Program-made: the position numbers and the translations under genes
Shown: piece after piece, positions 8,963 to 34,270 of the stretch
Numbering within the stretch: the stretch's first letter is position 1
Layout: each line of letters opens with the position of its first letter
Source of the DNA: an uncultured Pseudobdellovibrionaceae bacterium
GTDB lineage: Bacteria; Bdellovibrionota; Bdellovibrionia; Bdellovibrionales; UBA1609
Reading direction: 5' to 3'
NCBI GenBank assembly: GCA_964409815.1
Contig: CAYPFC010000003.1
Location: 2,367 to 36,636 of the forward strand
DNA: 34,270 nucleotides
Notes under the pieces: model-generated
What the model was told of the DNA's origin: nothing
The model's database searches: none
The model's input: the letters and a program-made list of their open reading frames with translations, nothing else

Positions 8963-8975
8963 TTCTCAATTCTCC

Positions 8976-10237: not shown

Positions 10238-11227
10238 CTAGAATTCCATCAGGAAGCCGCCGTTGATCAAGCTCGAAGTGAAGTCGTACGTCTGCGTAAT
10301 GGAAATAATCTGGCGGTACTCGGCGGTGAGATACACGCGATTGATTCCATATTCACGATCGAGTTGCGCCCGTGCGAGGGCATCGAAGTACGAGAGATTG
10401 AACGCGAGTCCCCCCGCGAAGTACGCGGCGAACGCGCCTCCCCATTTCGGCGGTTTGTCGTCGTCGCGGAACTCTCCGAACGCGAACGCGATCGCGCCGC
10501 CTTCCCCGTAGGGAACGAAAAGCTGCTTATCGAAAAATTGCGCGCGGTAAACGCCGCCGACCGAGTTCGGCATCGCCCAGAAGGTGAAGATCTCCCTCGG
10601 CGTGAGGCCCTGGTTCACTTGGCTGACGAAATGTCCGTTACCTTGAGCGACGTAGATTCCCGTTCCGGCTTTGAGCGACCATTTGCCGATGGCCGTGCGC
10701 CAAAGCTGCCATTCGTAGTCGAACATGATCGCGGGATTGTTCGTCTGGTCGTAGTTCTCCTCGAACGTCGCGCCGACCTGGCCCGCTTGATCGGGGTTTT
10801 CCAGGTTCGTGGGATTGAAGATCCCGATGCGGAACGCGGCCGCGCGGTGCTGATTGGACTCGTCGACCTTGTACAGGTACTCGCCCTCTTTCGTGATGCG
10901 CGTAAGGCCTTTCTCGGCGAACGGGTGCGGGACTTCTCTTTGGCCCTGGTGCTTGCTCCAGTCGAAAATCTTCTTTCCCGAAGCGCTCGAAGGGCGGGGC
11001 GGGGTCTCGGGTGTCACTTCCGCCTTCGGCGCGGGTTTGAGCTCTTCGGCCTGTGCGGGAAGCGGCTCTTCTTCGTCTTCCTCGTCCTCGTCCTCGATAT
11101 CCTCGTCTTCCGCGGTCCATTCCGATTCCACTTTCGCCTTGGACTCGGCTTGAGCGAGTAAACGCGACGGCGCCGCTTCGGTCGCGTACGGAATCAGGAT
11201 GAGCAGGGCGATAAGAAGTTTATGCAC
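10238..11227 (-). CDS. Hypothetical outer-membrane beta-barrel protein with acidic N-terminal extension
   Basis: GTG start at 11227 overlaps the upstream stop by 8 nt (GTGCATAA). Signal peptide MHKLLIALLILIPYATEAA. Acidic run EDEDIEDEDEEDEEE, then a Pro/Lys linker. Gly/aromatic-rich strands end in GGFLMEF (terminal Phe). Confidence 0.6.
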   Translation of the reverse strand: MHKLLIALLILIPYATEAAPSRLLAQAESKAKVESEWTAEDEDIEDEDEEDEEEPLPAQAEELKPAPKAEVTPETPPRPSSASGKKIFDWSKHQGQREVPHPFAEKGLTRITKEGEYLYKVDESNQHRAAAFRIGIFNPTNLENPDQAGQVGATFEENYDQTNNPAIMFDYEWQLWRTAIGKWSLKAGTGIYVAQGNGHFVSQVNQGLTPREIFTFWAMPNSVGGVYRAQFFDKQLFVPYGEGGAIAFAFGEFRDDDKPPKWGGAFAAYFAGGLAFNLSYFDALARAQLDREYGINRVYLTAEYRQIISITQTYDFTSSLINGGFLMEF

Positions 11228-12539
11228 GCGCGCGCAGTCTCCTCATTCCGTAGATGGGCAACGCAAGAAGCAAACTCAGAAGAATGAGAGACGTGGCGAG
11301 CGCGGGCCAGAATCCCGCCCTAAGCGCGAACAGGCTGAAGCCGTACGCCGGCCAGAGCGCCGCGCGCGCGATCGCGCGAAGCGCGGGCTTGTCGTGAATG
11401 AAGCGGGCGGCGTAGGGGCCGTATTTGTAGTACTTGCTGACGAAATAGCGGCCCCAGGTCCTTTGAAGCAGAACCTTGAATCGGAACTCACGGAACGTGT
11501 CGAGCGTCGGGCCGAGCGACGTTCCGTAGGCCGCGGTCGCGACGAAGCAGTTGAAATCCTCGGTGAGAAGGCCGAGCACCTGGTCGGGCGTCGCGGCCCA
11601 ATCGCAGCCGTCCGGAATGGGAACGGTATTGCAGCCTTCGGCGTCGGCGGCCGCCTTCGAGGGGAAGAACTGCACGATGTTCTCGGCTTCGTCTTTGAGC
11701 GCGATGCGGAAGAAGTAGCGCGTACCGTTCTCGAGGCCGTCGACCGTGGAGTCGTCGAGCTCGGCGCCGTCCTCGTCGATGATGAGATCTTCGGGCTCGA
11801 GGCTGTTCTCGGGATTTGCGGAGTCGGAGCCCGCGGCCGACATGAAGACGCGGACTTTCTTCGCTTCCGACGAGTAGCCTAAGTTCGGGAAATTCGTGTC
11901 CGTCGCGGGATCTTCAATGTAAATCTTCTCGTCGCCGGGATACGGCGTGAAGCCGCCGATCCCCTCGGAAGTCGGTGAGCCGTAAACGTCGTACGTGGCC
12001 GCCGTCGGCTTAAGAATTTTCACCGCGACCTCGACATACTCCTCGCCGGAATCGATGACGCCGTCCCTGTCCTTGTCGAGGTAGATGCGAAATGTGGCCG
12101 TGGTTGCGGTTAGGGCGCCCTCACAAGAGGCATTGCCAAGCAGCGCTCCGCAGATTTGACCCCAAGTCGTTTGAAGAGTTTTACCGTCGTTCCCGTCGTT
12201 GTCGACAATGCTGAGGATCGAGTTGTCGGTCTTCGTGACGATCGCTTCGCCGGCGGCGTCCGTCTGTAAAGTGAACGTGATCGTGCGATTGTCGAACGCG
12301 CGATTCTCGTTGCACGCGCAAAGCGGGTCATCCGCACACGTTAAAACGGCCGAGCAACAATTGCTGAAGGGCTTATCCGAAAACCCGCAAGCCGTGGCGT
12401 CGCCCGCGAAGCCGCCATAGATCGTCGGAGTTCCGGTGAGCGTGACGTTCGAGACGCCGTCCACTCCGGTGACGATGGGAGCCGCGGCGAGCGCGAGATT
12501 GGAAAACACGAATAGAGCGGCGAATAAAAATGGGCGCAT
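11220..12539 (-). CDS. Secreted Cys-rich/FN3-like surface protein with CFVATAAYG-type C-terminal membrane-anchor domain
   Basis: 439 aa with signal peptide MRPFLFAALFVFSNLALAAAP. Cys-rich N-terminal part (NCCSAVLTCADDPLCAC). FN3-like stretch DGLENGTRYFFRIALKDEAEN. C-terminal 109 aa (nt 11223-11549): CFVATAAYGTSLGPTLDTFREFRFKVLL...YYKYGPYAARFI...LRAIARAALWP, plus hydrophobic helices and an RRLRARA tail. Confidence 0.7.
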   Translation of the reverse strand: MRPFLFAALFVFSNLALAAAPIVTGVDGVSNVTLTGTPTIYGGFAGDATACGFSDKPFSNCCSAVLTCADDPLCACNENRAFDNRTITFTLQTDAAGEAIVTKTDNSILSIVDNDGNDGKTLQTTWGQICGALLGNASCEGALTATTATFRIYLDKDRDGVIDSGEEYVEVAVKILKPTAATYDVYGSPTSEGIGGFTPYPGDEKIYIEDPATDTNFPNLGYSSEAKKVRVFMSAAGSDSANPENSLEPEDLIIDEDGAELDDSTVDGLENGTRYFFRIALKDEAENIVQFFPSKAAADAEGCNTVPIPDGCDWAATPDQVLGLLTEDFNCFVATAAYGTSLGPTLDTFREFRFKVLLQRTWGRYFVSKYYKYGPYAARFIHDKPALRAIARAALWPAYGFSLFALRAGFWPALATSLILLSLLLALPIYGMRRLRARA

Positions 12540-12551
12540 GAGTCAATGACA

Positions 12552-13577
12552 TCATGTGCGTGGGATTAAGTCAAAAATCCTCTCGGCGATTTGGATGCCG
12601 TTGAGCGCGGCCCCTTTGCGAAGATTGTCCGACACGATCCACATGAGCCACGTGCGTGGGTCTTCCAGATCCTGATGAACGCGGCCGACGGCGACGGGAT
12701 CTTTCTCGCTCCAACTGGAAGCCAGCGGAAACACGGATTTTCCCGGCTCATCCTCGATCACGAGGCCCGTTTGCCTCGAGAGCGATTTTAAAACCTCTTC
12801 GCGCGAAACTTCTTTTTTCAGACGCACCCAGACCGCCTCGGAATGCGCGTTCCATGCGGGGATGCGCACCGTGAACGCGCTGATACGAAATGAGTTGTCG
12901 TTCATGATTTTTTTAGACTCGCGCATGATTTTAATTTCTTCCGAGCAAAATCCATTCGCCTGGAAGCCGCCGATTTGCGGAATGGCGTTCATCGCGATCG
13001 TGTGTGGAAAAGTTCGTGGAGCCGGTGCGTTCCGCCCTTCGACCCAGCTCTTCGTCTGGGTTTCGAGCTCGGTCTGCCCGTCGCGGCCGGCGCCGCTCAC
13101 GGCTTGGTAAGTCGCAACGTGCACCGAGTCCAGACCAAAGTCCTTACGCAGGGGCTCGAGCGCCACCACGAGCTGAATCGTCGAACAGTTCGGATTCGCG
13201 ATCAGCGCGGGCGTTCCCTTTTTCGGAAGCAAGTGGCCGTTCACTTCGGGCACGACGAGGAGTTTCGAGTCGTCCATGCGGAACGCGGCCGAGTTGTCGA
13301 CGGCCACCGCGCCGACTTTCACCGCGATCGGCGCCCATTCTTTCGAGATGTCGTCGCCCGACGAGAAGAACACGAGATCGAGTCCCCTGAAGCCTTCCTC
13401 CGAAGGCACGTCGATTTCATAATCCTTACCCTTGAATTTGCGCGTCTGTCCTTTCGAGCGGTCGCTCGCGAAAAGCTTCAGCTTTCCGACTGGGAACTCG
13501 CGTTCTTCTAAGAGTTTCAGGAAAACTTCACCCACCATTCCGGTGGCGCCGACGATGCCGACGTTAATCGCGTTCAT
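12552..13577 (-). CDS. asd: Aspartate-semialdehyde dehydrogenase
   Basis: 341 aa. MNAINVGIVGATGMVGEVFLKLLEEREFP is the Rossmann fold motif. IANPNCSTIQLVVALEPL holds the active-site Cys. YQAVSGAGRDG is also present. Confidence 0.93.
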   Translation of the reverse strand: MNAINVGIVGATGMVGEVFLKLLEEREFPVGKLKLFASDRSKGQTRKFKGKDYEIDVPSEEGFRGLDLVFFSSGDDISKEWAPIAVKVGAVAVDNSAAFRMDDSKLLVVPEVNGHLLPKKGTPALIANPNCSTIQLVVALEPLRKDFGLDSVHVATYQAVSGAGRDGQTELETQTKSWVEGRNAPAPRTFPHTIAMNAIPQIGGFQANGFCSEEIKIMRESKKIMNDNSFRISAFTVRIPAWNAHSEAVWVRLKKEVSREEVLKSLSRQTGLVIEDEPGKSVFPLASSWSEKDPVAVGRVHQDLEDPRTWLMWIVSDNLRKGAALNGIQIAERIFDLIPRT

Positions 13578-14367
13578 TAGTCTCTAATTCCTCATGCAGG
13601 TCTTCTCCCACCTCGGGAGAATACGGTTTCATGTTTCTCGGATGGCGGCTGCCTAACCGCCAAATGCCGAAAACGGCGCCGAGAGTAGCATAGCTAAGGA
13701 AGAGAACAAACAAAGTTGTTTCCGGTTTGAGTGCGACCATCACGAAAATGAAAACTCCGACGGGGAGGTAGCGGAACGGCAAGCGATGGCGAAAGTCGAT
13801 GTCTTTGAAGCTGCGATACCGGAACGTTGAAACCATCACGAATCCGAGTAAAAAAGTCATGGCAAGAAGTCCCCAGTGCCGAGCTGGATCCAGCGCCAAA
13901 TCCTCGAACGCGAGAACGCTCGAGGCGACGATGCCGGCGGCCATCGGAATCGGTAAACCTTGGAAGTACGCCTTCTCCACCGAGCCGCTCTGAACGTTGA
14001 AACGCGCGAGGCGAAGTGCACCGCATGCGACATAGAAAAAGCTCGCGAGCCAGCCGACGCGACCGAAGGGCTCGAGCGCCCAGAGGAAGAGCAGCAACCC
14101 CGGCGCGAGACCGAACGTGACCAGATCGCAGAGCGAGTCGAGCTCGGCGCCGAAGCGGCTCGTGGCGTTCGCGATGCGCGCGACGCGGCCGTCGAGTTGG
14201 TCGAAGATCGCGCCGACGACGATAGCGCCCGCGGCCCAGAGGTAATTGCCCTCGATCGCATAGATGATCGCGAAGAAGCCCGCGAACATATTCATGATAG
14301 TGATAAGATTCGGGAGAACGTAAATGTGCATGCCCACGCGGCGGGGTCCTTGGGGGGTATGCTTCAT
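13564..14367 (-). CDS. pssA: CDP-diacylglycerol--serine O-phosphatidyltransferase (CDP-alcohol phosphatidyltransferase family)
   Basis: 267 aa polytopic protein. The CDP-OH_P_transf motif DQLDGRVARIANATSRFGAELDSLCDLVTFGLAP matches D-G-x2-A-R-x8-G-x3-D-x3-D. Its stop overlaps the asd start by 14 nt, and its start overlaps the upstream stop (TGATG). Confidence 0.85.
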   Translation of the reverse strand: MKHTPQGPRRVGMHIYVLPNLITIMNMFAGFFAIIYAIEGNYLWAAGAIVVGAIFDQLDGRVARIANATSRFGAELDSLCDLVTFGLAPGLLLFLWALEPFGRVGWLASFFYVACGALRLARFNVQSGSVEKAYFQGLPIPMAAGIVASSVLAFEDLALDPARHWGLLAMTFLLGFVMVSTFRYRSFKDIDFRHRLPFRYLPVGVFIFVMVALKPETTLFVLFLSYATLGAVFGIWRLGSRHPRNMKPYSPEVGEDLHEELETNERD

Positions 14368-20779: not shown

Positions 20780-21008
20780 GGTGGCCTCCTCTCGTTTGTT
20801 GGTTCATCCCACAGACGAGAGGCACCGGCCTCTCCCACCTCTGCAAATCCAAATTCCAAATGAGCGGCAAGCGGTTTTGTTTTGAAACTTGGTTTCGTTC
20901 GGGCACCGGATAACGCAATGCGCGTCTCCCGGTTTCCCGAGTGAAGTGACTTTTCCGAATGCCCTCATTACAACCTCGGAGTACAGTTTTGTACTGAAGA
21001 GGTTTTCC

Positions 21009-21935
21009 ATGTCGACGAGTGCGGCTCCGAAGGCTCCCCGCAAGAGACTTCCGAAACCGAGTTGGATCAAGATGCGCGCCCCCGCGGGCGAGCGTTACAT
21101 GCAGATCAAAGATCTGCTCAAGGGCTTGAATTTGGCGACCGTCTGCCAGGAGGCGCAGTGCCCGAACATCGGCGAGTGCTGGGGCGGCGGAACCGCGACG
21201 ATCATGCTGATGGGAGAGGTGTGCACCCGCGGCTGCCGCTTTTGCAACGTGAAGACCGGCAATCCGAAAGGCAAGTTGGACCTCGAAGAGCCACAAAAGG
21301 TCGCGCACGCGGTTTCGCAAATGGGTTTGGATTACGTCGTGCTGACTTCGGTCGATCGTGACGATCTTCCCGACGAAGGCTCGATGCACTTCGCAAAAAC
21401 GGTTCGCAACCTGAAAGTGTCCGCGCCGGATTTGATCGTTGAGGTTTTAACTCCCGATTTCAAAGGCAACGAGCTTTTCATCGGTCACATCGTCGATGCC
21501 GAGCCCGACGTCTTCGCTCACAACGTGGAGACCGTCGAGCGCCTGCAGTCACGCGTTCGCGATCCGCGCGCCGGATATAAACAATCATTGAGAGTTCTTG
21601 AGTTCGTGAAGGAGCGCGATGAGACGCGCTACACGAAAACGTCCGTCATGCTGGGGCTCGGGGAAAACGACGAAGAGATTCGCCAGACGTTGCGCGACTT
21701 GCGTGACGTCGGCTGCGACGTCGTGACGTTCGGGCAGTACCTGCAGCCGCAGAAGCGGCATTTGCCGGTCGAGGAGTTCGTCACTCCCGAAAAATTCGCG
21801 CAGTGGCAGTCCGAAGCCGAAGGCATGGGCTTCTTGTACGTCGCAAGTGGTCCCTTGGTGCGCTCATCTTATCGTGCCGGGGAATTCTTCATGAAAGGTG
21901 TCATTGAAAAACGCAAAGCCGAAGGGGGCAGATAG
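21009..21935 (+). CDS. lipA: Lipoyl synthase
   Basis: Start at internal ATG 21009 (MSTSAAPKAPRKRLPKPSWIKMRAP). Both cluster motifs are present: CQEAQCPNIGEC and CTRGCRFCNV (radical SAM CxxxCxxC). Confidence 0.95.
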   Translation: MSTSAAPKAPRKRLPKPSWIKMRAPAGERYMQIKDLLKGLNLATVCQEAQCPNIGECWGGGTATIMLMGEVCTRGCRFCNVKTGNPKGKLDLEEPQKVAHAVSQMGLDYVVLTSVDRDDLPDEGSMHFAKTVRNLKVSAPDLIVEVLTPDFKGNELFIGHIVDAEPDVFAHNVETVERLQSRVRDPRAGYKQSLRVLEFVKERDETRYTKTSVMLGLGENDEEIRQTLRDLRDVGCDVVTFGQYLQPQKRHLPVEEFVTPEKFAQWQSEAEGMGFLYVASGPLVRSSYRAGEFFMKGVIEKRKAEGGR

Positions 21936-23270
21936 ATGGCAACGCAGAATGTGAAACTTCCCGACATTGGCGAGGGTGTGACAGAAGGCGAGTTGATCAA
22001 GTGGCTCGTGAAAGTCGGCGACACCGTGAAGCCCGATCAACCGGTTGCGGAATTTATGACCGACAAAGCAACTGTGGAAGTTCCCTCGCCCTCGGCGGGC
22101 ACCGTTAAAGAATTGAAATTCAAAGAAGGCGACGTCGTTCCGATCGAGACCGTGATCGCGATTTTGGACGGTGATGGCGCGGGCGCCGCGAAGGCGGCTC
22201 CTGCGGGCGCTTCAGCAGCGAAGCCTGCTCCGGCGACTCAGCCGGCGGCGATGCAGGCGAAAGCTCCCGCCGCGACGGCTGGCGCTCCGACTTCGCGATC
22301 GACTCCGAGCGCGAACGGTGGTGGCGCGGGCATGGACGTTTATCCTCCCGCCGCGAACTCGAACGTGCTCGCGACTCCGGCGACGCGCCGCTTGGCGCGT
22401 GAGACCGGCGTCGACATCAACGCGCTTCAAGGCACCGGCATCGCCGGCCGAGTCACTCGCGACGACGTGACGAAAGCCAAAGGCGGAGGCGGCGGAGCTC
22501 CGGCCCAGCAGGGTCGCGCGCCGATGATGGACATTCCGCGTCCCGCGGTGATCTCGCAGCCGGGATCGCTTGAGGATCGCGTTCCGATTCGCGGTATCCG
22601 CAAGAAGATCGCCGAAAACATGCAGATGGCGAAGCACGTGATCCCGCACTTCACGCTGATGGAAGAAGTCCGCGTGGATGCGCTCGTGCAAGTGCGTACG
22701 CAAGCGAAAGAGGCGGCCGAGAAGTACGGCGTGAAGGTCACTTACCTTCCGTTCATCATGAAGGCCGTCATCGCTACCTGTCGCGAGTTCCCCATGTTCA
22801 ACGCGAGCATGGACGATCAAGCGCAAGAGATCGTGTACAAGAAATACTTCAACATGGGCTTTGCCGCCGACACGCCGAACGGCTTGATGGTTCCGGTCGT
22901 GAAGAACGCCGACTTCAAGACGATCCTGCAAATCTCGCAGGAGATTCAGCAGCTCGCGGGCAAGGCGCGCGACGGAAAGCTCGCGCTCGAGGACATGAAG
23001 GGCGCGACGATGACGATCACGAACATCGGCTCGGTCGGCGGCGTCTATGCGACCCCGATCATTAACCACCCGGAAGTGGCGATCCTCGGCGTTTACAAGA
23101 TCCAGGACAAACCGATTTGGAACGGCAAAGAGTTCACGCGCGGCCAAGAAATGAATTTCACCATCACCTGCGACCACCGCTTGATCGACGGCGCCGTCGC
23201 CGCGAACTTCATGAAATCGTTCGCTGCGCGCATCGAAAACCCCAGCCAGCTCATGCTGGATATGATCTAG
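21936..23270 (+). CDS. 2-oxoacid dehydrogenase E2 component (dihydrolipoamide acyltransferase; likely acetyltransferase)
   Basis: 444 aa. One lipoyl domain (EFMTDKATVEVPSP, lipoyl-Lys). Ala/Pro-rich linker. E3/E1-binding domain (ATPATRRLARETGVDINALQGTGIAGRVTRDDV). Catalytic domain with DHRLIDGA. Its ATG directly abuts the lipA TAG. Confidence 0.9.
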   Translation: MATQNVKLPDIGEGVTEGELIKWLVKVGDTVKPDQPVAEFMTDKATVEVPSPSAGTVKELKFKEGDVVPIETVIAILDGDGAGAAKAAPAGASAAKPAPATQPAAMQAKAPAATAGAPTSRSTPSANGGGAGMDVYPPAANSNVLATPATRRLARETGVDINALQGTGIAGRVTRDDVTKAKGGGGGAPAQQGRAPMMDIPRPAVISQPGSLEDRVPIRGIRKKIAENMQMAKHVIPHFTLMEEVRVDALVQVRTQAKEAAEKYGVKVTYLPFIMKAVIATCREFPMFNASMDDQAQEIVYKKYFNMGFAADTPNGLMVPVVKNADFKTILQISQEIQQLAGKARDGKLALEDMKGATMTITNIGSVGGVYATPIINHPEVAILGVYKIQDKPIWNGKEFTRGQEMNFTITCDHRLIDGAVAANFMKSFAARIENPSQLMLDMI

Positions 23271-23281
23271 AAGGATAGAAC

Positions 23282-24738
<1,457 letters not shown>

Positions 24739-24742
<4 letters not shown>

Positions 24743-25365
24743 AGCTGGAGGACTGGGGGCTCATCGCGTATGAGTCCTCAAGCTTAAAGCAGCTCTCCTT
24801 GGTCGATGCCGTCGCTGACGGCGGCGAGGAGCGGGTTGTTTTTTGCACGCATCCTCCGGTCGTGACTCTTGGGCGGGCGACGAAACCCGGTGACGTCGCC
24901 GGGTGGTCGGGCGCGATCGCGGAGACCTCTCGTGGCGGGCGCGCGACCTATCACGGGCCGAATCAAATCGTAATTTATCCCATTCTGGATCTGCGTCGGG
25001 CGCATGTGAGGTTCGGCGCGCGCGATATTCATGCGTACTTGCGCACGCTGGAGTCGGCGACGGTCGCGGCTTTGCGCGAGTGCGGATTGGGCGGCGCCGA
25101 GGCACGCACGACCAAGATGGGCGAGGATTCGCTGACCGGAGTTTGGATCGGCGAGAAGAAGATCGCGTCCATCGGAATCGCCGTTCGCAAGTGGGTTACG
25201 TACCATGGGGTCGCGGTGAATATCGCGCATGATCCGAGCGCCCATCAGGGCATTCGGCCCTGCGGATTTACGTCGAACGTCATGACGTCGTTGGAAGCCG
25301 AGCTTGGCCGCGCGGTCGATGCGAAGCCGGTGTTTGAGTCGATGTTTCGCTCTTTCTTCGAATGA
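24739..25365 (+). CDS. lipB: Lipoyl(octanoyl) transferase LipB
   Basis: ATG 24739 overlaps the lpdA TGA (ATGA). TSRGGRATYHGPNQIVIYPILDL, KKIASIGIAVRKWVTYHGVAVNI and the PCG catalytic Cys are present. The track ORF 24382..25365 is just this frame staying open upstream inside lpdA. Confidence 0.9.
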
Positions 25366-26259: not shown

Positions 26260-26883
26260 TTAGGCCTTCTTCGATTTCGCGTACGCGATGCAGAGGTCTT
26301 TCACGCTATCGAGGTTCAGCAGCACGCCCTTCACTTGTTTCTGGAAATAGTTGTACGCAATGACCGCGGGGATCGCCACGATCAGACCGACCGCGGTCGC
26401 GACGAGCGCTTTCGAAATTCCGATCATCACCGCGGTGGCGTCGCCCTGCGATTGCGCCAGGCCACGGAACGCGTCCATGATTCCGAACACGGTACCGAGC
26501 AGACCGATGAACGGGGCGTTCGAGCCCACGGTCGCCAAAAACCCGAGATAGCGCTCGAGCACAGGACGCTCGATCGACGCGAACGAGGTGAAAATTTCTT
26601 CGAGGCCGGCAAGTCCCTTTTCACGCACGTGACGGAGGCCGTACGAGAGACCGCGGGTCTCGAGCGCGTCGCGATCTTTGCTCATGTCCTCGAGGTCGTG
26701 GAGATTGTTCGATTGCAAAACCTCCCGCAAACGATTCGCGATGACCGCGCTCTGTCGGCGGACCTTACCAAGCGTGAAAAACCGCTCTAGAATGAAGGCG
26801 ATGGACAAAATGCTCAGGATAATGAGCACCCACAGCGTGACTTCATGTGCGACTTGCGCGATAGCAAAAAAGTTATCAGTCAT
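26260..26883 (-). CDS. MotA/TolQ/ExbB-family proton-channel protein
   Basis: 207 aa with three TM helices. The signature LATVGSNAPFIGLLGTVFGIMDAF is present. It lies immediately upstream of the ExbD-like gene. Confidence 0.85.
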   Translation of the reverse strand: MTDNFFAIAQVAHEVTLWVLIILSILSIAFILERFFTLGKVRRQSAVIANRLREVLQSNNLHDLEDMSKDRDALETRGLSYGLRHVREKGLAGLEEIFTSFASIERPVLERYLGFLATVGSNAPFIGLLGTVFGIMDAFRGLAQSQGDATAVMIGISKALVATAVGLIVAIPAVIAYNYFQKQVKGVLLNLDSVKDLCIAYAKSKKA

Positions 26884-26887
26884 GAAT

Positions 26888-26917
26888 GGCCTCCACCGTC
26901 AATTATCCCTGGAGGCC
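26888..26917 (-). promoter_or_regulatory. 8-bp GC-rich hairpin that sequesters the exbB-like Shine-Dalgarno sequence
   Basis: GGCCTCCA (26888-26895), 14-nt loop, TGGAGGCC (26910-26917). On the minus-strand RNA the 3' arm UGGAGGCC contains the SD GGAGG, 6 nt before AUG 26883. Confidence 0.4.
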
Positions 26918-26940
26918 GAGAAGGCGGTCAAGGTACGATC

Positions 26941-28728
26941 ATGTTGATGAGGCGAGTCGTCCAGAGAGCTTTAATCCCGATTCTCTCGGCGTTTCTGCTC
27001 ACGGCCTGTGAGCTGAATCGCGACAGCCAGCCTTCGGTCCTCGTGATCGCCGTCGAAGGTTTAAGTTTCGAAACACTCAGTTGTGATTCGGACGATTTGG
27101 CGGGGTTGCGGGCGTTTTGTGAGGAGTCCGTGCGCTTCTCCCACGCCTTCACGCCCTCCACCATGAGCCAAGCCGCGATGACGTCCCTCATGACCGGGCT
27201 TTACCCGATGGACCACGGCGTTCGTCACAATGGCGATAATTTCCTCTCGGCGAAGTTCAAGACCCTGGCGGAAAGCGCTCTTCAGCGCGGCTACCACACG
27301 CTCTTCGTCTCGGGCGGCCCGCCGATCTGGAGAAAGTCCGGCCTCGCGCAAGGCTTCGAGGTTTTCGACGACACCATGGACCTCGCTCCGGGCCTTTACT
27401 ATCGACCCGCGAAGGAAGTTTTTCGACTGGCGACGCAGTGGATGGACGGACTCGACGACGGACGCTCGACGTTCGTGACGACGTTTCTCGCCGACATGCA
27501 GTTTCCGCAGCAGGCCACGCGCACCGAGGACGGCGAGCTCCGCGAGCTCAGCGTGAGCGCGCAACTTGAGGAAATCGACGAGTCGCTCGAAGGATTGGTG
27601 AAGTGGCTTAAGGTCAACAAGCGCTGGAACTCCACGCACATCGTCCTCGTCGGGCTCAACGCGCTCGAGATCCCGGAGAGCGGCGAGCCGTCCACATTGA
27701 GCTTACGCTCGCGCTCCACCCAGGTGTCGTTGTTCATCAAGCCCTCGCGCAAAGAGCGCGACAACGTCATTCAGTGGGGCGTCGACCGAAACGTGAGCCT
27801 TGTCGATGTCGGTCACACGATGTTCGCATGGCTAGGGGTCGAGGCTCCGCGCTCGTCGCTCGACGCGCTTAAACCGCAGAGCCTAGCTTCGGCGCTTTCC
27901 CAGCCGGAGCCCAATTGGCCCGAAGGGCGCCTGCTCTTGAGCGAGACCGCTTGGCCCGATTGGCTCGAGGGCGCGGGCGTGCGTTGGTCCATCCGCCAAA
28001 ATCACTTTCTCTACATCCACGATTCGAAACCGCTGGTCTACAACACGCTGACGGATCGAATGGAAAACTTGAGCTTGAAAATCACCGACCCGCTCTGGAC
28101 ATCGCTGAACGCCGACGTGCTGAAGCTCCTTAAGCAGGCGCAGAATCCACCGTTCAAAGGCATGACCTCGCACTGGTTCGAACAGCTTCAAGTCGCGCGC
28201 GAGATGTGGGCCAAGAGCTCGGAGGCGCGCTCGCCGCGCGGAGACGAGTCGTGGACGAAGTGGGTGTTGAGGCATGCGATGAACGCGCGATCGTGGCGCG
28301 AGGTGAAACGCCTCTCGCAGGAAATCGGAGAGCCGGTCGGAACATACATAGCCGCCCGTCACATGGGCGAGAGCCTCCCCATGCCGCGTAACCCTTGTGT
28401 GCGCTTGCTGCTCGCCGCGAAGGGCGACAAGAAGCTCTTTCAGAGCGAGTGCGAAGACGAGCGCGTGCTGGCCCTGTACGCGTGGTCGACGGCGAAGGAC
28501 GAAGAGGATCGCTCGCGCGCGCAAGATCGTTTTCTGCAGCTCACCGGACAGGCTTGGATGGACCAGCAGATCGGCCGACTGAATTACTTGAACGGCCTAC
28601 GGTGGGACGTCGATCGCCAGTGGCCCGAAGCTCCGCAGCCGGTTGAGTATTTGCTCACTTTGAAGGAGTTCGAGGCGTACAGTAAGCGCGTCTCAAGCTT
28701 TCTGGAGACTAAAGACTTCCGCCTCTAA
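26941..28728 (+). CDS. Sulfatase-like (alkaline-phosphatase superfamily) lipoprotein with long C-terminal helical extension
   Basis: ATG 26941 gives MLMRRVVQRALIPILSAFLLTAC (lipobox). The N-terminal core VLVIAVEGLSFETL...AFTPSTMSQAAMTSLMTGLYPMDHGVRHNG resembles the sulfatase/PEA-transferase fold but lacks C/S-x-P-x-R. About 250 C-terminal residues have no recognised domain. Confidence 0.65.
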   Translation: MLMRRVVQRALIPILSAFLLTACELNRDSQPSVLVIAVEGLSFETLSCDSDDLAGLRAFCEESVRFSHAFTPSTMSQAAMTSLMTGLYPMDHGVRHNGDNFLSAKFKTLAESALQRGYHTLFVSGGPPIWRKSGLAQGFEVFDDTMDLAPGLYYRPAKEVFRLATQWMDGLDDGRSTFVTTFLADMQFPQQATRTEDGELRELSVSAQLEEIDESLEGLVKWLKVNKRWNSTHIVLVGLNALEIPESGEPSTLSLRSRSTQVSLFIKPSRKERDNVIQWGVDRNVSLVDVGHTMFAWLGVEAPRSSLDALKPQSLASALSQPEPNWPEGRLLLSETAWPDWLEGAGVRWSIRQNHFLYIHDSKPLVYNTLTDRMENLSLKITDPLWTSLNADVLKLLKQAQNPPFKGMTSHWFEQLQVAREMWAKSSEARSPRGDESWTKWVLRHAMNARSWREVKRLSQEIGEPVGTYIAARHMGESLPMPRNPCVRLLLAAKGDKKLFQSECEDERVLALYAWSTAKDEEDRSRAQDRFLQLTGQAWMDQQIGRLNYLNGLRWDVDRQWPEAPQPVEYLLTLKEFEAYSKRVSSFLETKDFRL

Positions 28729-29442
28729 GCCGGTGCGCTTTTTCAATTTGAACGCGATGGAATACAGAGTGTCTTCGTCGGTGGGCTTGTAGCGCGCGTC
28801 CGTCGTGGGGCGAATCGTGCAGAGCTGAATCGCCTTGGGCTTGATCATTCCGATGACTTCGATCCATTCATCGAGCGCGTCGGATCCGGTATTGTCGATC
28901 TCGCCGGTGAAGAAGATCGATTGGACCGTGCTGTCCTTCAGCTTGCGAATTCCACCCAGGAACTTCGCCAGATTGATTCGGATCAGCGGATCGTTCACTT
29001 TCATCATCAAAGCGTCGTTGCCGGCATCGATCTTAATCACGCGCTCGTCGGCAAGGTTGAGGCCGGTCACGACTTTCTTGTTGTCGAGGTGCGCGCCGTT
29101 CGAAAGAACGACGATCTTAGTTCCGGGCAAGTGAGCGTCGCGCAGCTCGCAAACGAGCTTCATCGCTTCGTCGAACTCAGGGTAAAGCGTCGGCTCGCCG
29201 TTGCCGGAAACGACGACGGCCTTCGTCTCGACCGAGCGGGAAATGTAATCTTTGAACGCGCGACTGAGGTCCTCAAGCTTCGGAAACTCGTAGTCTTTAC
29301 GAATGCGATTCATCGTCAGGACGGTCGGCCCCAAGCTGCAATAGACGCAGTTGTACGAGCACACCTTTTCGGCGCCGAGCAAATTGATCCCGAGGGTTGA
29401 GCCGTAACGCAGGGAAGTTACGGGGCCGTAAACGATTTCCAT
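28693..29442 (-). CDS. Small radical SAM protein (COG0731-like, no SPASM/auxiliary cluster region)
   Basis: 249 aa. MEIVYGPVTSLRYGSTLGINLLGAEKVCSYNCVYCSLG carries the CxxxCxxC motif. VVSGNGEPTLYP is a SAM-binding GGE-like motif. AAGGAAGA SD present. Its 3' end overlaps the convergent sulfatase-like gene by 36 nt. Confidence 0.8.
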   Translation of the reverse strand: MEIVYGPVTSLRYGSTLGINLLGAEKVCSYNCVYCSLGPTVLTMNRIRKDYEFPKLEDLSRAFKDYISRSVETKAVVVSGNGEPTLYPEFDEAMKLVCELRDAHLPGTKIVVLSNGAHLDNKKVVTGLNLADERVIKIDAGNDALMMKVNDPLIRINLAKFLGGIRKLKDSTVQSIFFTGEIDNTGSDALDEWIEVIGMIKPKAIQLCTIRPTTDARYKPTDEDTLYSIAFKLKKRTGLEAEVFSLQKA

Positions 29443-29503: not shown

Positions 29504-30184
29504 TTAGAAATTAAGCACGCCCAACCAGAACGGCAAGTCGGGATGCGCGCGCGACAATTTCTCGCTAATTGCATCCAGATTTGTCTGCTCGAACGGGACG
29601 GCGTAAAGAGGGTGAGAGACCACCGAGTGACTCAAGAACACGAGGCGGTCTCCGGGCTGGGTACGAAACGATGAGAGATTCATGTTTGTCGTCGTGTGCA
29701 GACCGATCAGGTTCTGGGGAAGGGGCGGCAGCATCTCGGGCGGTTGGCTCAATTCGGTTGCGAGATCGATCTGCACGCTCAAGGGGATCCAGGGGAGTTT
29801 CGGCCTGGCGAGAAATAGGTGCGGGTGGCCGACTTGCGCATAGGCAAGCTCGCCTTGAGAATGCGCGAAAACAAGAACTTCGACGCCGGCCTGGTATTCC
29901 TGCTTGTTATCCTCGCGGTAAACGGAATCGTTCGCGAGCATGAGCCCCGTACGCAAGCTGTTCGCCAGCGGAGATAAACAGGTCAGCTTCTGGAAGGGAG
30001 AAGTCGCCTCCATATCCTGGCGGGCCGAAAGGATGTAATCGGTCAGAATCTCGATGACCTTCTTGGCGGCGCCGCGATTGCCCCAAGGCGTGGCGACAAC
30101 GCCGAAGCTGCCATCCTCCTCGAGGTGAACTTCCGGGGTCGGTCGAAAGAGTTTTCCGCTGTACGAGCGCTGGTCAAAAGCCAT
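29504..30184 (-). CDS. PP2C-fold pseudophosphatase-like protein (all metal-binding Asp motifs substituted)
   Basis: I prefer ATG 30184 because it overlaps the upstream TAA as TAATG; the track start is 30274. A by-eye alignment to the window's own PP2C (2880..3614) shows a conserved hydrophobic framework, with ADGMGG changed to ATPWGN, VGDSR to VGHPH, CSDG to LSHS, and GDDN lost. Confidence 0.6.
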   Translation of the reverse strand: MAFDQRSYSGKLFRPTPEVHLEEDGSFGVVATPWGNRGAAKKVIEILTDYILSARQDMEATSPFQKLTCLSPLANSLRTGLMLANDSVYREDNKQEYQAGVEVLVFAHSQGELAYAQVGHPHLFLARPKLPWIPLSVQIDLATELSQPPEMLPPLPQNLIGLHTTTNMNLSSFRTQPGDRLVFLSHSVVSHPLYAVPFEQTNLDAISEKLSRAHPDLPFWLGVLNF

Positions 30185-32169
30185 TAGGTGCCGATCCCGT
30201 AACGTCTTAATTTGCTCTTCGCCTTCTTCGTATAGTCGTCGAAATCCAAGTTCTCTTTGATGATCCGTCGCCATTTCTCTTTCGCGCTGTCGACGTTGCC
30301 GAGGCTTTCCTCGAGCACGCTGTCTTCGTAGATGTTCTTCATCTCGCGCTTGAGCTCGGCGTGCATTTGACCGCGAATCTCTTTCGCTTCGGAGTTGCCC
30401 GGGTCTTCATCGACCGCTTTGTCGCAGGCGAGGTAGGCTTCCTTAAACTTGCTCTTTGAACCGAGGGTGCGGCACTGCTCGAGCAGAGAGTCGACCTTCG
30501 TCTTCAATTCCTTCTTGATCGACGCGAGCTCACGGCGGGCCGTGCTCTTCGTGCTTTCGATTTTCGGATAGGGCGAGTCGAGGAACTTCTCGTACTCGCG
30601 AACGGCCTTAAACAGGCTGCCGCTTTTCCAGATGCCGCGCGCTTTGTTGTAATGAGCTTCGCCCCTGGCGGCTTTCTGGTTTTCCTTTTCATTCTGCTCG
30701 GCGAGGAGCTTGCGCTCCTGCTCGCGCGCTTGCGCCGAGTGGATCATCTCGACGATCAATGAGTGCTCGGGGTCGAGCTCCATCGCCTCGGCCAGGCACT
30801 GTCGGGTTTCATCGACGGTCGCGTAGACAGTAAGCTTCGCCTTGCACGTTTCGACGTAGCCGGTGATTTGCTGTTCGATCATGGCGCGCTCGCGGTCGCG
30901 GCGCTCCAGATCGCGCTGGCGGTGCACGAGCTCTTTACCCTGCTCGCAGAAGGACTGAAGCTCTTTGGACGTTTCGAACTGCGGAATCAGCTCGTGAACT
31001 TTCGCAAGCTCGGTCAGGCAAAGCTCGTACTTGCCCGAGACGTAAAGGTTGCGCGCGAGCACGAAGGAGTCCTTCACGACCGATTTCTGTTCGGGCGAAA
31101 GGCTTTCGAAGACGACGCTTTGGCCGCCGACGGAACTGGGTTCACGCGCGGGCTTAGGTTTGTCGTCGGTAAGCGCGAGAATTAAGACGATGGGAATTAG
31201 CGCGATAAGCGCGACGCGGACTTTGTTTTTCTTCCAGTCGACATGCTTCAGGTGGTGTGGACGGAGCTTGCGCCAATCTTTCGGGATCTCCTCGAGCGCA
31301 CCGCCCGACTGAAGCTGGGGATACTGCATCATCTCGGGCGGATACCACGGCATCGGGGGCGCGGCGAGCATGGGGTCGAACGCCGGTACCGGCAGGTTCT
31401 CCATGCGGTTGCTGAAATGCGTATCGCGAATCTCGAATGACATGGCCACGTTCATCACGCGGATCTCATCGCCGCTGTCGAGGCGTGTCGGCTCGTGCGG
31501 AGGAATGCGCTGTCCGTTCAGTTTCGTTCCATTTGAGCTTCCAAGGTCGGTAATGAAGAAGCCTTCTTTCGTACGCGCGAGCTCGAAGTGCTTGCGGCTG
31601 ACGTGGGGGCTGTCGATCGGAATCTCGCATCCGGGATCGCGGCCGGCGACCCACAAATGTCCCTCGAGCTTGAGCACTTCGTCGTCCGCCGTATTCGGGT
31701 AAGACACGCGGAAATACGGGACGAGATTCGAAACTCCCGCGACAGTGGCTTCGTTATTCAGGCGGGGAGAGGTGTCCTCGCCCGGCGGATTCATGCGCGG
31801 CTGATAAAAGACCGGCAGATTCTCGGCGGGCTTGGGCCCGTCCGCGGAGCCGTCGGAGCTCTCGGCTCTCGGTTGAGGCGTCGGCTCGAAATAGAACTCA
31901 TAGGGCGGAACGCTGAACGCGCACGGCTCACCGAGCTCGATCACTTCGAGCGATTGGCTGCCTTTTTGGATCAACACGAATTTGCTTAAGGACTCGCAGA
32001 CCCATACGCCGTCGCGCTCATAGAACTTCAAATGGTGGCGAGAGATCCCGCGCTCGCTCGAAAGCACGATCTGCGCGTCTTGCGCGCGGCCGGCGACGTA
32101 CTCCATGCCGGGCTCCATCGTGATACGACTGACTTCTTCGCCGCGAAGCTTGACGGTCAAACGCGCCAT
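30184..32169 (-). CDS. Double-FHA, single-pass membrane protein with long coiled-coil/TPR-like C-terminal (predicted periplasmic) region
   Basis: ATG 32169 overlaps the upstream TGA (TGATG) and follows GGGGAGG. FHA1: VAGRAQDAQIVLSSERGISRHHLKF, with no SxNG. FHA2 is canonical: VAGRDPGCEIPIDSPHVSRKHFEL...ITDLGSSNGTKLNGQRI. TM helix VRVALIALIPIVLILAL. About 330 aa of helical repeats with paired Cys follow. Confidence 0.8.
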   Translation of the reverse strand: MARLTVKLRGEEVSRITMEPGMEYVAGRAQDAQIVLSSERGISRHHLKFYERDGVWVCESLSKFVLIQKGSQSLEVIELGEPCAFSVPPYEFYFEPTPQPRAESSDGSADGPKPAENLPVFYQPRMNPPGEDTSPRLNNEATVAGVSNLVPYFRVSYPNTADDEVLKLEGHLWVAGRDPGCEIPIDSPHVSRKHFELARTKEGFFITDLGSSNGTKLNGQRIPPHEPTRLDSGDEIRVMNVAMSFEIRDTHFSNRMENLPVPAFDPMLAAPPMPWYPPEMMQYPQLQSGGALEEIPKDWRKLRPHHLKHVDWKKNKVRVALIALIPIVLILALTDDKPKPAREPSSVGGQSVVFESLSPEQKSVVKDSFVLARNLYVSGKYELCLTELAKVHELIPQFETSKELQSFCEQGKELVHRQRDLERRDRERAMIEQQITGYVETCKAKLTVYATVDETRQCLAEAMELDPEHSLIVEMIHSAQAREQERKLLAEQNEKENQKAARGEAHYNKARGIWKSGSLFKAVREYEKFLDSPYPKIESTKSTARRELASIKKELKTKVDSLLEQCRTLGSKSKFKEAYLACDKAVDEDPGNSEAKEIRGQMHAELKREMKNIYEDSVLEESLGNVDSAKEKWRRIIKENLDFDDYTKKAKSKLRRYGIGT

Positions 32170-33158
32170 CAGAACCTCCCCTCGACGAAAGTATTGCAAG
32201 CCTCATAGTTGGCCTTGGCCTCCTTATATGTCTGGCTGTTGGCGTCTTTCACCATCACCATGACATTGCGGAACGCGGCTCTGCAGGATTTGAATTGGTT
32301 TTGGTCGCGATACTTGCGGCCCAGAACCATGTGGTACTGAATGACTTCGTTGAATTTTCGTTGCGAGAGTCGGAGGTAGCGATTGCATAGCGTATGCTCC
32401 GGATTGAGCGCGAGACAAGCTTGGAAGCTGATGAGCGCGCGCTCATATTGGCCGTCACGGTAGTCGCGGAATCCACGCACGTAGTTCTCTTGCGCCTGGC
32501 GGGCGTTCACGGAGCCGTCGAGTCTCTTGGTGTTCGCGGCTTCACCGGCTTCCTTAAGTTTGTACGCGGCCTCGATCTCGGCCTGGATGTCTTGCTCGGT
32601 TCTGAGCTTCTGGGCCTCTTTCTTCTTGGTCTCACTCGAGAAGAGCCAATATATAAGGAGTGCCACGATCCCGTAGATCAAGAAGCGTTTCGAGTTGTTT
32701 TGTCCCGGTCTCTTCGCCGTTCCGCGCGGGCGCGAAGGAGCGGCCGCCGGCGGGGGCAATCCGTAGGGCATCGGCGGATAGCCGTGTGGTGGCGCGTGGG
32801 GCACCGACATCAGCGGAACTTCCAGATGGGCCGGGCCGCCCATGTTGAATTGCAGTTCGGTTTCGCCGAGCGTGAGCGTGTCGCCTTCTCTTAAGCGGCC
32901 TTTGTTGACTTCATTGCCGTTAATCAGGACGGGGTTTTTCTCATTCAGGCATATGACTTCGCATTCGCCCGGCATGCACACGATCGTAACGTGCTTGCGG
33001 CTGACTTTCGGGTCGTTAACGACCACGAACTCGCACTCGGGGCTTCGGCCGATCGTGAACTGCGCGGAGTTCATCACGCGAACGGTGCCTTTCATGGCGC
33101 CGCTGATGACGGTCCAACGCGTTTCTAATCCGGGCGAGAGCGCGAGTGCTGAGCTCAT
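32169..33158 (-). CDS. FHA-domain, single-pass membrane protein with C-terminal TPR repeats
   Basis: ATG 33158 overlaps the upstream TGA (ATGA). FHA: FTIGRSPECEFVVVNDPKVSRKHVTI...NPVLINGNEV...GDTLTLGETELQF. Pro-rich linker. TM helix FLIYGIVALLIYWLF. TPR-like segments YVRGFRDYRDGQYERALISFQACLALNPEH and GRKYRDQNQFKSCRAAFRNVM. Confidence 0.8.
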   Translation of the reverse strand: MSSALALSPGLETRWTVISGAMKGTVRVMNSAQFTIGRSPECEFVVVNDPKVSRKHVTIVCMPGECEVICLNEKNPVLINGNEVNKGRLREGDTLTLGETELQFNMGGPAHLEVPLMSVPHAPPHGYPPMPYGLPPPAAAPSRPRGTAKRPGQNNSKRFLIYGIVALLIYWLFSSETKKKEAQKLRTEQDIQAEIEAAYKLKEAGEAANTKRLDGSVNARQAQENYVRGFRDYRDGQYERALISFQACLALNPEHTLCNRYLRLSQRKFNEVIQYHMVLGRKYRDQNQFKSCRAAFRNVMVMVKDANSQTYKEAKANYEACNTFVEGRF

Positions 33159-34270
33159 TCATCCCCCGCCGGCAGTAAGACGATCAAGTAATAGGCGAGC
33201 TTGTTCACGCCATAGACGCCCTGAGCGACCACGCGGAACGACAATCCGCTGAACTCGAGCTCGTTGCTCGCGATCTCGTCCGGGTTCTGATCCACGCGCT
33301 CGAGCAAATCTTTGATGCTGAGTTTGAGCGCTTGGTCGTTAAGCTCATTGACATTCATCGTGGTGAGAGTCGACGCCGGTTGACCCAGACGCGATTCGAG
33401 GGCCTGGTTCACGGCCGCGATCGAGAGATCGGCCGCGCGGATTCCCATCGCGCCGAAACCCATCAGCTCGACGAGGTTCGTGATCTCGCGGTTGCGGTCG
33501 TGATCAACGACCTTGTTTCCGCCGCCGCCCCCTCCGCCGTCGCCGCTCACCGCGCGCGTGAGCGCGCTCGAGACGTTCGAGGCGAGAAGCTGAATCGCCG
33601 GGAACTGATACGTGACTTGCAGCGTATCCGTTCCTTCTTTAAGGGCCGTATCGAGCTGCTTGTTGATGTTCTGAATCGGGTACTCGACCACTTTATAAAG
33701 GAAGAAGAAGAGCACGCCGCCCAGGATGAGCGCGATAAAGAGCGTTGTGATGAACAGGCTCAAGACGCGACCGTTGTCCACGGCGAGCGAACTCATATCG
33801 TAGAGCACGATCGCCCAATGGGTGATCGCATGGCTTCCCGTTTCGGCGTTGAAGAACTCGATCGGATAGAGCGCCACCACGGTGCTGTCGTCGATCTGGT
33901 AAACGGATTCTTTATTTTGCTTGCGGCCTTCGTGAACGTGCGCGACGTCCGGATACGAGCCGGCTTGCGAGGCCGGGGCGATGATATTTCCATCGAGGTT
34001 ATTGATGATGTAGGCCTTCTTCACGCCCGGGCGACTGACGGCGATGTCGACCGACACCGAAGTTTCCTGCCCTTGCATGAGGAAGGGGCGGTTCACCTTG
34101 GCGAGAGTGGTCGCGATGGTGAGCGCGTGCTGTTGGCTCTCCTCCTCGATCGAGGCTCTGAGAATCTGTGCGAGGGGAATCATCGACAGCGAAGTCGTCA
34201 GGATGATGAACAGCGCCATGAATCCGCCAAGCACCATGCGGAACTCGAAAATCTCGGGAAGGCGGTAGAC
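33155..34270 (-). CDS. Two-TM sensor-like protein (periplasmic Cache-like domain, HAMP-like segment, Gly7 linker, PAS-like C-terminal domain) with no enzymatic output; 5' end probably outside the window
   Basis: The frame stays open from 34237 to the window edge (VYRLPEIFEFRMVLGG...). TM1 GGFMALFIILTTSLSMIPLA. About 150-aa ectodomain (AYIINNLDGNIIAP). TM2 LSLFITTLFIALILGGVLFFFLY. GDGGGGGGGN is encoded at 33518-33538. The C-terminal ~110 aa look PAS-like by eye. Confidence 0.6.
   Translation of the reverse strand, partial: VYRLPEIFEFRMVLGGFMALFIILTTSLSMIPLAQILRASIEEESQQHALTIATTLAKVNRPFLMQGQETSVSVDIAVSRPGVKKAYIINNLDGNIIAPASQAGSYPDVAHVHEGRKQNKESVYQIDDSTVVALYPIEFFNAETGSHAITHWAIVLYDMSSLAVDNGRVLSLFITTLFIALILGGVLFFFLYKVVEYPIQNINKQLDTALKEGTDTLQVTYQFPAIQLLASNVSSALTRAVSGDGGGGGGGNKVVDHDRNREITNLVELMGFGAMGIRAADLSIAAVNQALESRLGQPASTLTTMNVNELNDQALKLSIKDLLERVDQNPDEIASNELEFSGLSFRVVAQGVYGVNKLAYYLIVLLPAGDE

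Follow-up and report, generated by a model that had tools for sequence, protein, structure and literature searches.

In Bdellovibrio bacteriovorus HD100, the genes Bd0470 (TadC), Bd0471, Bd0472, Bd0473, Bd0474, and Bd0475 constitute one operon (PMC6561027; PMC12034629). Bd0473 is an FHA protein of 386 amino acids (aa), Bd0475 is a hypothetical protein of 228 aa, and Bd0474 is a 674-aa protein with FHA domains at residues 2–100 and 134–241 and an extracytoplasmic tetratricopeptide repeat (TPR) region at residues 363–673 (PMC6561027; PMC12034629). The genes Bd0463–Bd0466 are yggU, divIVA, proC, and yggS (PMC7186360). Here we analyzed a 34,270-nucleotide (nt) stretch of DNA, hereafter the window, whose source differs from HD100 in being an uncultured Pseudobdellovibrionaceae / Bdellovibrionales relative. 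Four minus-strand open reading frames (ORFs) at 29504–34270, designated gene 1 to gene 4 with gene 1 uppermost, belong to a locus that is well supported, by position and architecture, as the counterpart of Bd0470–Bd0475. We consider it likely that this quartet, lying in a tadC operon like Bd0470–Bd0475, encodes an accessory of the predatory Tad pilus, namely a scaffold in the inner membrane that reads phosphothreonine.

Published data place tadC and Bd0474 at the step at which Bdellovibrio-type predators pass from prey attachment to killing and entry, without giving a mechanism. The transposon mutants Bd0470::tn and Bd0474::tn failed to kill E. coli prey, and complementation was achieved for both (Duncan et al. 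2019, PMC6561027). Within the operon, a need in prey killing is known only for these two genes. The Bd0474 mutant attaches to prey and neither kills nor rounds it, and the authors suggested that the protein may belong to the type IVb pilus machinery (PMC6561027). Bd0474 binds the TPR protein Bd0075 via extracytoplasmic domains in a bacterial two-hybrid assay, and an interaction of Bd0473 with Bd0475 was predicted by AlphaFold-Multimer with an interface predicted template modelling score (ipTM) of 0.60 (PMC6561027 / PMC12034629). According to a 2026 preprint, a deletion of tadC was not obtained, TadC is found at the invasive pole, and the tadC gene is located away from tadB, next to FHA and TPR genes noted as uncharacterised (bioRxiv 10.64898/2026.07.08.737194). 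These reports treat the operon as one that predation requires and that probably forms part of the type IVb/Tad pilus or regulates it (PMC6561027, PMC12034629, bioRxiv 10.64898/2026.07.08.737194). Because the locus in the window is the counterpart of this published and partly characterised predation operon, the proposal of the initial annotation that the quartet is an undescribed system with no known output is not supported; the genes fall in a pilus cluster, a placement that the initial annotation had itself given as one that would refute it. No new system is revealed, and the known operon gains a dead PP2C, a kinase-less sensor, and conserved FHA residues.

In the ORF listing, the minus strand of 29504–34270 holds four consecutive ORFs (33155–34237+, 32169–33158, 30184–32169, and 29504–30184). 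The co-directional arrangement and the ATGA, TGATG, and TAATG junctions described in the initial annotation were all recovered on reading the reverse complement, and the tight coupling of the four genes held as well, the overlaps recurring in more than 20 related genomes. A one-genome-per-species scan with a gene 4 profile yielded 33 loci, all of them in Bdellovibrionota metagenome-assembled genomes (MAGs) of the Pseudobdellovibrionaceae / Bdellovibrionales. Every locus with enough contig has a Maf gene on the opposite strand followed by T2SSF, DUF192, gene 1, gene 2, gene 3, and gene 4 in this order, down to ~30% protein identity. In all 33 species genomes, each an uncultured MAG, the operon reappears with the same genes and the same overlaps. 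Across these genomes the quartet and its overlaps are kept, and a T2SSF-family (tadC) gene and a DUF192 gene lie upstream of and coupled to gene 1 in all loci with enough upstream sequence (27/27). In two related contigs (L001 and L002), the upstream genes encode a 301-aa T2SSF-family protein and then a DUF192 protein of 115–118 aa; DivIVA, ProC, YggS, and Maf genes precede the T2SSF gene on the opposite strand, and gene 4 is followed by a radical SAM gene, an opposite-strand sulfatase gene, and then ExbB/ExbD genes.

All five intra-operon junctions overlap or abut. The junction between the T2SSF and DUF192 genes is mostly −1 nt, and that between DUF192 and gene 1 is −23 or −14 nt in almost all loci (DUF192 at 7041–7397 in L001 and 7067–7414 in L002). 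Gene 1 and gene 2 are joined by −4 or −1 nt in 24 of 28 loci, gene 2 and gene 3 by −1 nt in 24 of 28, and gene 3 and gene 4 by −1 or −4 nt in 22 of ~30. Such recurrence of junction types in relatives is far beyond chance. Since the junctions are conserved across six genes and the radical SAM gene is set apart by a gap, a six-gene translationally coupled operon, of which the window holds the distal four genes, is well supported as the unit. The DUF192 protein has no signal peptide or transmembrane helix, and we know of no role of DUF192 in Tad systems. One locus (L006) carries a 1.7-kb insertion between gene 3 and gene 4 at ~8300–10000.

The HD100 operon shows the same six-gene order, led by tadC, that is seen in the relatives of the window locus. 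Bd0473, Bd0474, and Bd0475 (386, 674, and 228 aa) compare with genes 2, 3, and 4 (329, 661, and 226 aa), gene 2 being shorter, and the domain map of Bd0474, two FHA domains and then TPR, is that of gene 3. The upstream neighbours yggU, divIVA, proC, and yggS are common to the HD100 operon and to the related locus L002; there, matches to PF02594, DivIVA, P5CR, Ala_racemase_N, and Maf precede the T2SSF gene, in agreement with the synteny of Bd0463–Bd0466. For the published interface motif of Bd0474, N382-x-Y384-M-Q-x-x-Y389, gene 3 has a counterpart in N374-L-Y-V-S-G-K-Y381, which lends weak support to the correspondence.

From the proposed ATG at 34237 out to the edge of the window (34270), the frame of gene 1 meets no stop codon, and the 371 visible codons of the gene are 82% identical to residues 170–538 of a 540-aa relative (P0290). 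Full-length relatives consist of 538–542 aa with a canonical FHA domain at the N-terminus (58–59 bits for Pfam FHA, cut-off 20.7, with additional matches to Yop-YscD_cpl), and ~169 N-terminal residues of gene 1, comprising the FHA domain and a linker, fall beyond the window edge. The two transmembrane helices and the sensor-like nature without a kinase core given in the initial annotation stand, and its complete protein of 360 aa does not, the gene being cut at the edge. The claim that gene 1 has no output rested on this cut; the missing 169 residues carry the canonical FHA domain.

The visible part of gene 1 is ordered as a first transmembrane helix, a periplasmic PAS/PDC-like domain, a second transmembrane helix, a HAMP-like helix pair, a Gly-rich linker, and a cytoplasmic PAS-like domain. 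A Pfam scan of this part gave no domain match. Pfam also gave no HisKA or HATPase_c match for gene 1, and the model of the relative ends in a PAS-like domain. That full-length AlphaFold2 (AF2) model has a predicted local distance difference test (pLDDT) score of 81 and matches a WalK model in Foldseek with E = 1e-13 over 383 columns; a weak NCBIfam WalK match spans the periplasmic stretch of gene 1 (33758–34177). The FHA domain of the same model superposes on GarA, OdhI, FhaA, and DgcB in Foldseek. The match to the WalK model and the FHA superposition together indicate that the gene 1 product is composed of FHA, a transmembrane helix, periplasmic PAS/PDC, a transmembrane helix, HAMP, and PAS, a WalK-like architecture without a kinase core. 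With WalK-type sensor histidine kinases it shares the succession of transmembrane helix, extracytoplasmic PAS/PDC, transmembrane helix, HAMP, and cytoplasmic PAS, while it differs from them in having no DHp or catalytic ATP-binding domain and in having an N-terminal FHA domain in place of the kinase output.

Gene 2 has one FHA domain (Pfam E = 4.5e-14, 53 bits) and gene 3 has FHA in two stretches (E = 1.4e-27, 96 bits; FHA2 by Pfam at aa 173–238), both against a cut-off of 20.7 bits and both accompanied by a weak TPR_2 match. The one plus two FHA domains previously ascribed to these genes are thereby confirmed by Pfam; the total of three holds for genes 2 and 3 and fails for the operon, which has four including that of gene 1. 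One hydrophobic helix follows the FHA part in each protein (aa 159–177 in gene 2 and aa 317–335 in gene 3), and Pfam and hydropathy support the topology proposed earlier, namely cytoplasmic FHA domains, a single transmembrane helix, and a helical/TPR part outside the membrane. The architecture of gene 3 is common to all of its 232 homologues. In the FHA domain of gene 2, G37, R38, and S53 are invariant and N75 is present in 25 of 26 relatives. FHA1 of gene 3 retains GR and SRxH and has a conserved SKF in place of the NGT loop, and FHA2 is fully canonical, with GR, SRKH, and SSNGT each at least 97% conserved. Across the operon, 4/4 FHA domains have an invariant GR Arg and an invariant SxxH Ser, and all phosphothreonine-contact residues (GR Arg, SxxH Ser/His, and NG(T) Asn) are invariant in two of them, the gene 1 FHA domain and gene 3 FHA2. 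The FHA proteins gave NCBIfam matches to FhaB, OdhI, TagH, GltG, SctD, and EspA that were all below the cut-off, and membership of these families was dropped for that reason.

The start of gene 4 at TAATG, giving 226 aa, is backed by a database protein of 226 aa with 100% identity and by relatives of 225–228 aa. The AF2 model of gene 4 has a pLDDT of 88.3 and a predicted template modelling score (pTM) of 0.87. Its top Foldseek match is tPphA (E = 1e-11, TM-score 0.71), followed by PppA and PstP; 151 PDB chains were matched at E ≤ 1e-3, the best 50 of which have the PPM fold throughout. Matches were also obtained to the non-catalytic PP2C folds of RssB (3f79/3f7a) and TAB1 (2pop). Pfam gave only a sub-cut-off SpoIIE match (15.6 bits, cut-off 25), NCBIfam gave no match, and the gene 4 family profile did not match the active PP2C of the window significantly (E = 0.44); because this profile comparison is not significant, the fold assignment rests on structure prediction and Foldseek. 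The family comprises 353 clusters at 50% identity, and the best 150 of these 353 are short stand-alone proteins, mostly of 213–253 aa, with some shorter fragments.

The catalytic motifs of gene 4 were read against the intact Stp1-type PP2C of the same window, and conservation was assessed over 137 relatives. In motif II, ADGMGG is replaced by ATPWG, the Asp becoming Thr32, and Thr occupies this position in 111/137 relatives. The GDSR motif is changed to G-x-P with a variable residue at the Asp position, SDG of motif VIII is changed to S-[H/R]-S with His/Arg186 or Ser187 in place of the Asp, and the Asp position of motif XI varies among D, E, Q, and N. The position of the phosphate-binding Arg (Arg14) is retained in 113/137 relatives. 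Gene 4 is accordingly read as a PP2C-fold pseudophosphatase predicted to be catalytically dead, which confirms the earlier assignment of a PP2C fold without the catalytic Asp motifs, the fold through AF2 and Foldseek and the loss of the metal-binding Asp of motifs I, II, VIII, and XI through the motif comparison. Conservation in the family peaks at the former catalytic motifs and at a loop around Thr61, in which T61 is found in 134, D57 in 123, P63 in 114, and F64 in 107 of the relatives; the surrounding region (aa 51–70) has a pLDDT of 55–70. To our knowledge, the loop D57-x-E-x-T61-S-P-F64 is absent from canonical PPMs. With an aromatic residue at +3, the Thr61 loop may be a candidate phosphothreonine site and FHA ligand.

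Published accounts do not call Bd0475 PP2C-like or mention a phosphatase fold, and the domains of Bd0472 are not described in them (PMC6561027; PMC12034629). A dead PP2C with a Thr loop in the Bd0475 family and a kinase-less WalK-like sensor in the Bd0472 family appear to be unreported in the searchable literature, as do the retained FHA Arg/Ser in all four domains together with the absence of a Hanks kinase from the window.

No Pkinase match was found by Pfam among the scanned window ORFs of at least 150 aa, and no HRDxKxxN motif was found in the six frames of the window, in line with the earlier statement that no Hanks-type kinase motif was seen in it. The genes listed for the 10-kb flanks of L001 and L002 include no kinase, and neither a kinase nor a type VI secretion system (T6SS) gene is present in the window or in these flanks. 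The ORF at 2880–3614 (+), which had been noted as an active PP2C, is indeed an intact Stp1/IreP-family PP2C (242 bits, above the cut-off); its presence in the window implies that this genome uses Ser/Thr phosphorylation. The kinase for DgcB, an FHA protein of Bdellovibrio, is unlinked as well, and Bd3148 has been proposed as a candidate.

The suggestion made in the initial annotation of a phosphothreonine-dependent scaffold across the inner membrane still provides, we infer, the best mechanistic reading. The three FHA proteins would assemble into a scaffold in the inner membrane that surrounds or adjoins the TadB/TadC platform of the predatory Tad (type IVc) pilus, at the invasive pole. Contacts of this scaffold with other envelope proteins may run through the periplasmic TPR domains, as experimentally shown for Bd0474 and Bd0075, while the four cytoplasmic FHA domains would dock phosphothreonine marks placed by a Hanks kinase whose gene lies at another site of the genome. 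Gene 1 would act as a WalK-like periplasmic sensor with its own FHA domain as the sole output. The dead PP2C may serve as a non-catalytic adaptor, presenting a phosphorylated ligand through the near-invariant Thr61 loop; alternatively, it could hold a phosphopeptide in the degenerate cleft that retains Arg14. The module would act after prey attachment and license prey killing and rounding. We show how the operon is built and conserved, which folds its proteins have, and which residues they keep, and the mutant and interaction data are published; the contact with TadB/TadC, the dependence on phosphorylation, the role of Thr61, and the cue of the sensor are inferred.

A more specific version, in which a hub made solely of phosphothreonine readers gates the predatory Tad pilus, is rather unlikely to be correct in all of its parts together. 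Here the Bd0475-family PP2C would be a phospho-adaptor whose Thr61 receives a phosphate from an unlinked Hanks kinase when prey is contacted; phospho-Thr61 would be bound by one of the four FHA domains, and the dead Arg14 cleft would take a second phosphosite. The Bd0472-family WalK-like sensor would report a periplasmic cue through its own FHA domain, and as an outcome the TadB/TadC platform would be switched from attachment to invasion. The conserved Thr loop, the FHA residues, and the protein pairs offer specific targets for tests in B. bacteriovorus.

Several points weigh against the phosphothreonine-reading scaffold. tadC is invisible in the window itself, which ends inside gene 1, and orthology to Bd0472–Bd0475 is judged from composition, sizes, domain coordinates, synteny, and one short motif, not from direct alignment. 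The tadC transposon insertion may be polar on downstream genes, so that pilus and module are not cleanly told apart by the published phenotypes. Phosphorylation, the kinase, and the FHA ligand enter as predicted roles for these proteins, and the role of Thr61 is drawn wholly from conservation and the low model confidence of its loop. Changes in the NGT loop set the gene 2 FHA domain and FHA1 of gene 3 off from the canonical form. Moreover, all four FHA domains also match Pfam Yop-YscD_cpl, the model of the YscD cytoplasmic domain, because of which a phosphorylation-independent structural role of these domains is possible. The last two points are shared by the main rival explanation, in which phosphorylation plays no part and the proteins would make up a static SctD (YscD/PrgH)-like ring in the inner membrane, or a complex that aligns the Tad machine, with FHA domains serving as packing modules. 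This explanation also agrees with the YscD structures among the Foldseek matches, the PrgH-like annotation of the Myxococcus counterpart MXAN_4649, and the absence of a nearby kinase. Against such a ring, the phosphothreonine-contact Arg/Ser are invariant in all four FHA domains, two of which are fully canonical, and the phosphopeptide-binding FHA domains of GarA, OdhI, FhaA, and DgcB outrank YscD structurally. The NCBIfam SctD model TIGR02500 scored only 19.5 and 30.7 bits (cut-off 86), the periplasmic parts are TPR/helical with no ring-building motifs, and the sensor-type and PP2C-derived proteins in the operon point to signalling. We regard the ring as unlikely.

The autonomous, undescribed trans-envelope phospho-signalling system of the initial annotation, standing outside any known machine, would fit the generic annotation of these proteins (“FHA domain-containing protein” or “hypothetical protein”) and the fact that no kinase, pilus, secretion, or motility gene was seen beside the quartet inside the window. 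However, the window cuts the operon, the 27/27 relatives with upstream sequence show tadC and DUF192 coupled to gene 1, and the B. bacteriovorus counterpart has been published with predation phenotypes and an interaction partner, which makes an autonomous system very improbable. The least probable of the explanations is a gliding-motility or Tol/Exb module in which the FHA-TM-TPR (TM, transmembrane helix) proteins would be GltG/GltJ-like partners of the nearby ExbB/ExbD motor. Nearly all loci have MotA/ExbB and ExbD genes as conserved neighbours, and a TolA/TonB-like gene lies at 1851–2903, but the best score of the ExbB protein is to TolQ. The weak NCBIfam GltG matches (24–34 bits) span the FHA domain only and stand against a cut-off of 650 bits (NF033760), and the published defect of the Bd0474 mutant is in prey killing after attachment. 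The link to GltG/gliding and ExbB/ExbD was rejected, as there is no coupling and the radical SAM gene and the opposite-strand sulfatase gene intervene before the ExbB/ExbD genes.

Other systems combine similar proteins. In the Kil system of Myxococcus xanthus, the platform genes kilH/kilG have directly upstream of them one gene for an FHA+TPR protein and one for an FHA protein (Seef et al. 2021, PMC8460266), and KilD (FHA+TPR) is required for killing and forms clusters where prey is contacted (PMC8460266). The Kil system resembles the locus described here in being a predatory Tad-type machine with many FHA proteins, in which MXAN_4648/MXAN_4649 adjoin T2SSF platform genes. It differs in that KilD is described as cytoplasmic and the ATPase KilF itself bears an FHA domain; its gene table has no PP2C-like, DUF192, or WalK-like sensor gene, and the likeness drawn here is one of gene content and order. 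The T6SS of Pseudomonas aeruginosa (PpkA kinase, PppA PP2C, and Fha1) likewise associates FHA and PP2C-fold proteins with a contact-triggered trans-envelope machine, and PppA is among the best structural matches of gene 4. In contrast to that pathway, the operon here is without a kinase, the PP2C is predicted to be dead, and the FHA proteins are membrane-anchored with periplasmic TPR; the T6SS TagH/Fha model TIGR03354 scored 28–38 bits (cut-off 120).

The C-terminal domain of RssB and TAB1 have a PPM fold minus the metal ligands and use it for protein binding, as proposed for gene 4, whereas gene 4 is a stand-alone protein of 226 aa with its own Thr loop and has no receiver domain and no link to proteolysis or MAP kinases. 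The actinobacterial cluster fhaA-fhaB-pstP-rodA-pbpA-pknA-pknB also has FHA, FHA, and PP2C genes in a row, and the FHA domains here resemble FhaA/FhaB, with a score of 58 bits for the FhaB NCBIfam model (cut-off 125). PstP is active and membrane-anchored, however, and the kinase and cell-wall genes adjacent there are absent here; the parallel to fhaA-fhaB-pstP that had been drawn thus comes down to shared domain use.

The coordinates of the operon features are listed in Table 1.

Table 1 Features of the four-gene locus in the window.
Feature	Coordinates	Strand	Basis
Gene 1 (Bd0472-like), C-terminal 371 codons only	33155..34270	-	Frame open to 34270; relatives 538–542 aa
Gene 1, first transmembrane helix	34178..34234	-	Hydropathy scan
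Gene 1, periplasmic alpha/beta (PAS/PDC-like) sensor domain	33758..34177	-	AF2 secondary structure, WalK match
Gene 1, second transmembrane helix	33701..33757	-	Hydropathy scan
ATGA overlap, gene 1 stop and gene 2 start share bases	33155..33158	-	Reverse-complement reading
Gene 2 (Bd0473-like), 329 aa: FHA, Pro-rich linker, transmembrane helix, periplasmic helical/TPR domain	32169..33158	-	
Gene 2, FHA domain, aa 17–105	32844..33110	-	Pfam and residue conservation
TGATG overlap, gene 2 / gene 3	32167..32171	-	Reverse-complement reading
Gene 3 (Bd0474-like), 661 aa: two FHA domains, transmembrane helix, ~325-aa periplasmic TPR-rich domain	30184..32169	-	
Gene 3, FHA1, aa 1–100	31870..32169	-	Residue conservation
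Gene 3, FHA2, aa 165–245	31435..31677	-	Pfam and residue conservation
Gene 3, transmembrane helix, aa 317–335	31165..31221	-	Hydropathy scan
TAATG overlap, gene 3 / gene 4	30182..30186	-	Reverse-complement reading
Gene 4 (Bd0475-like), 226 aa, stand-alone PP2C/PPM fold, catalytic metal ligands lost	29504..30184	-	AF2, Foldseek, motifs
Gene 4, family-specific loop D57-M-E-A-T61-S-P-F64-Q	29990..30016	-	Conservation, low pLDDT

The gene that follows gene 4 after a gap of 61 nt (28693–29442, minus strand) encodes a radical SAM protein of 249 aa with weak NCBIfam matches to TYW1, HxsC, and viperin, and is a neighbour in most related loci. It was considered as a seventh member of the operon and rejected: the gap is 24–228 nt, the gene is absent in L020, L021, and L023, and a weak promoter-like site lies in the gap. 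This site is at 29479–29451 in the window, and the promoter/terminator scan was overall at chance level. In L004, a 3.3-kb insertion (10678–13999) separates gene 4 and the radical SAM gene. A sulfatase/phosphodiesterase-family gene (26845–28728, plus strand) and a TolQ/ExbB-like gene (26260–26883, minus strand), whose starts overlap head to head, are conserved neighbours across the Bdellovibrionota loci; an ExbD gene is present in the relatives and would correspond in the window to the ORF just below 26260.

Elsewhere in the window, the Stp1/IreP PP2C gene at 2880–3614 (+) overlaps the start of the TolA/TonB-like gene at 1851–2903 (-), with no partner kinase nearby. The ORFs at 5870–8419 (-), 34–1266 (+), and 11220–12539 (-), of 849, 410, and 439 aa, had no Pfam match even at E = 0.1. 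The plus-strand genes at 20889–25365 encode lipoyl synthase, E2, E3, and lipoate ligase, a lipoate / 2-oxoacid dehydrogenase block that is syntenic with the relatives. Because this block is syntenic too, the window is collinear with the genomes of the relatives over more than 13 kb.

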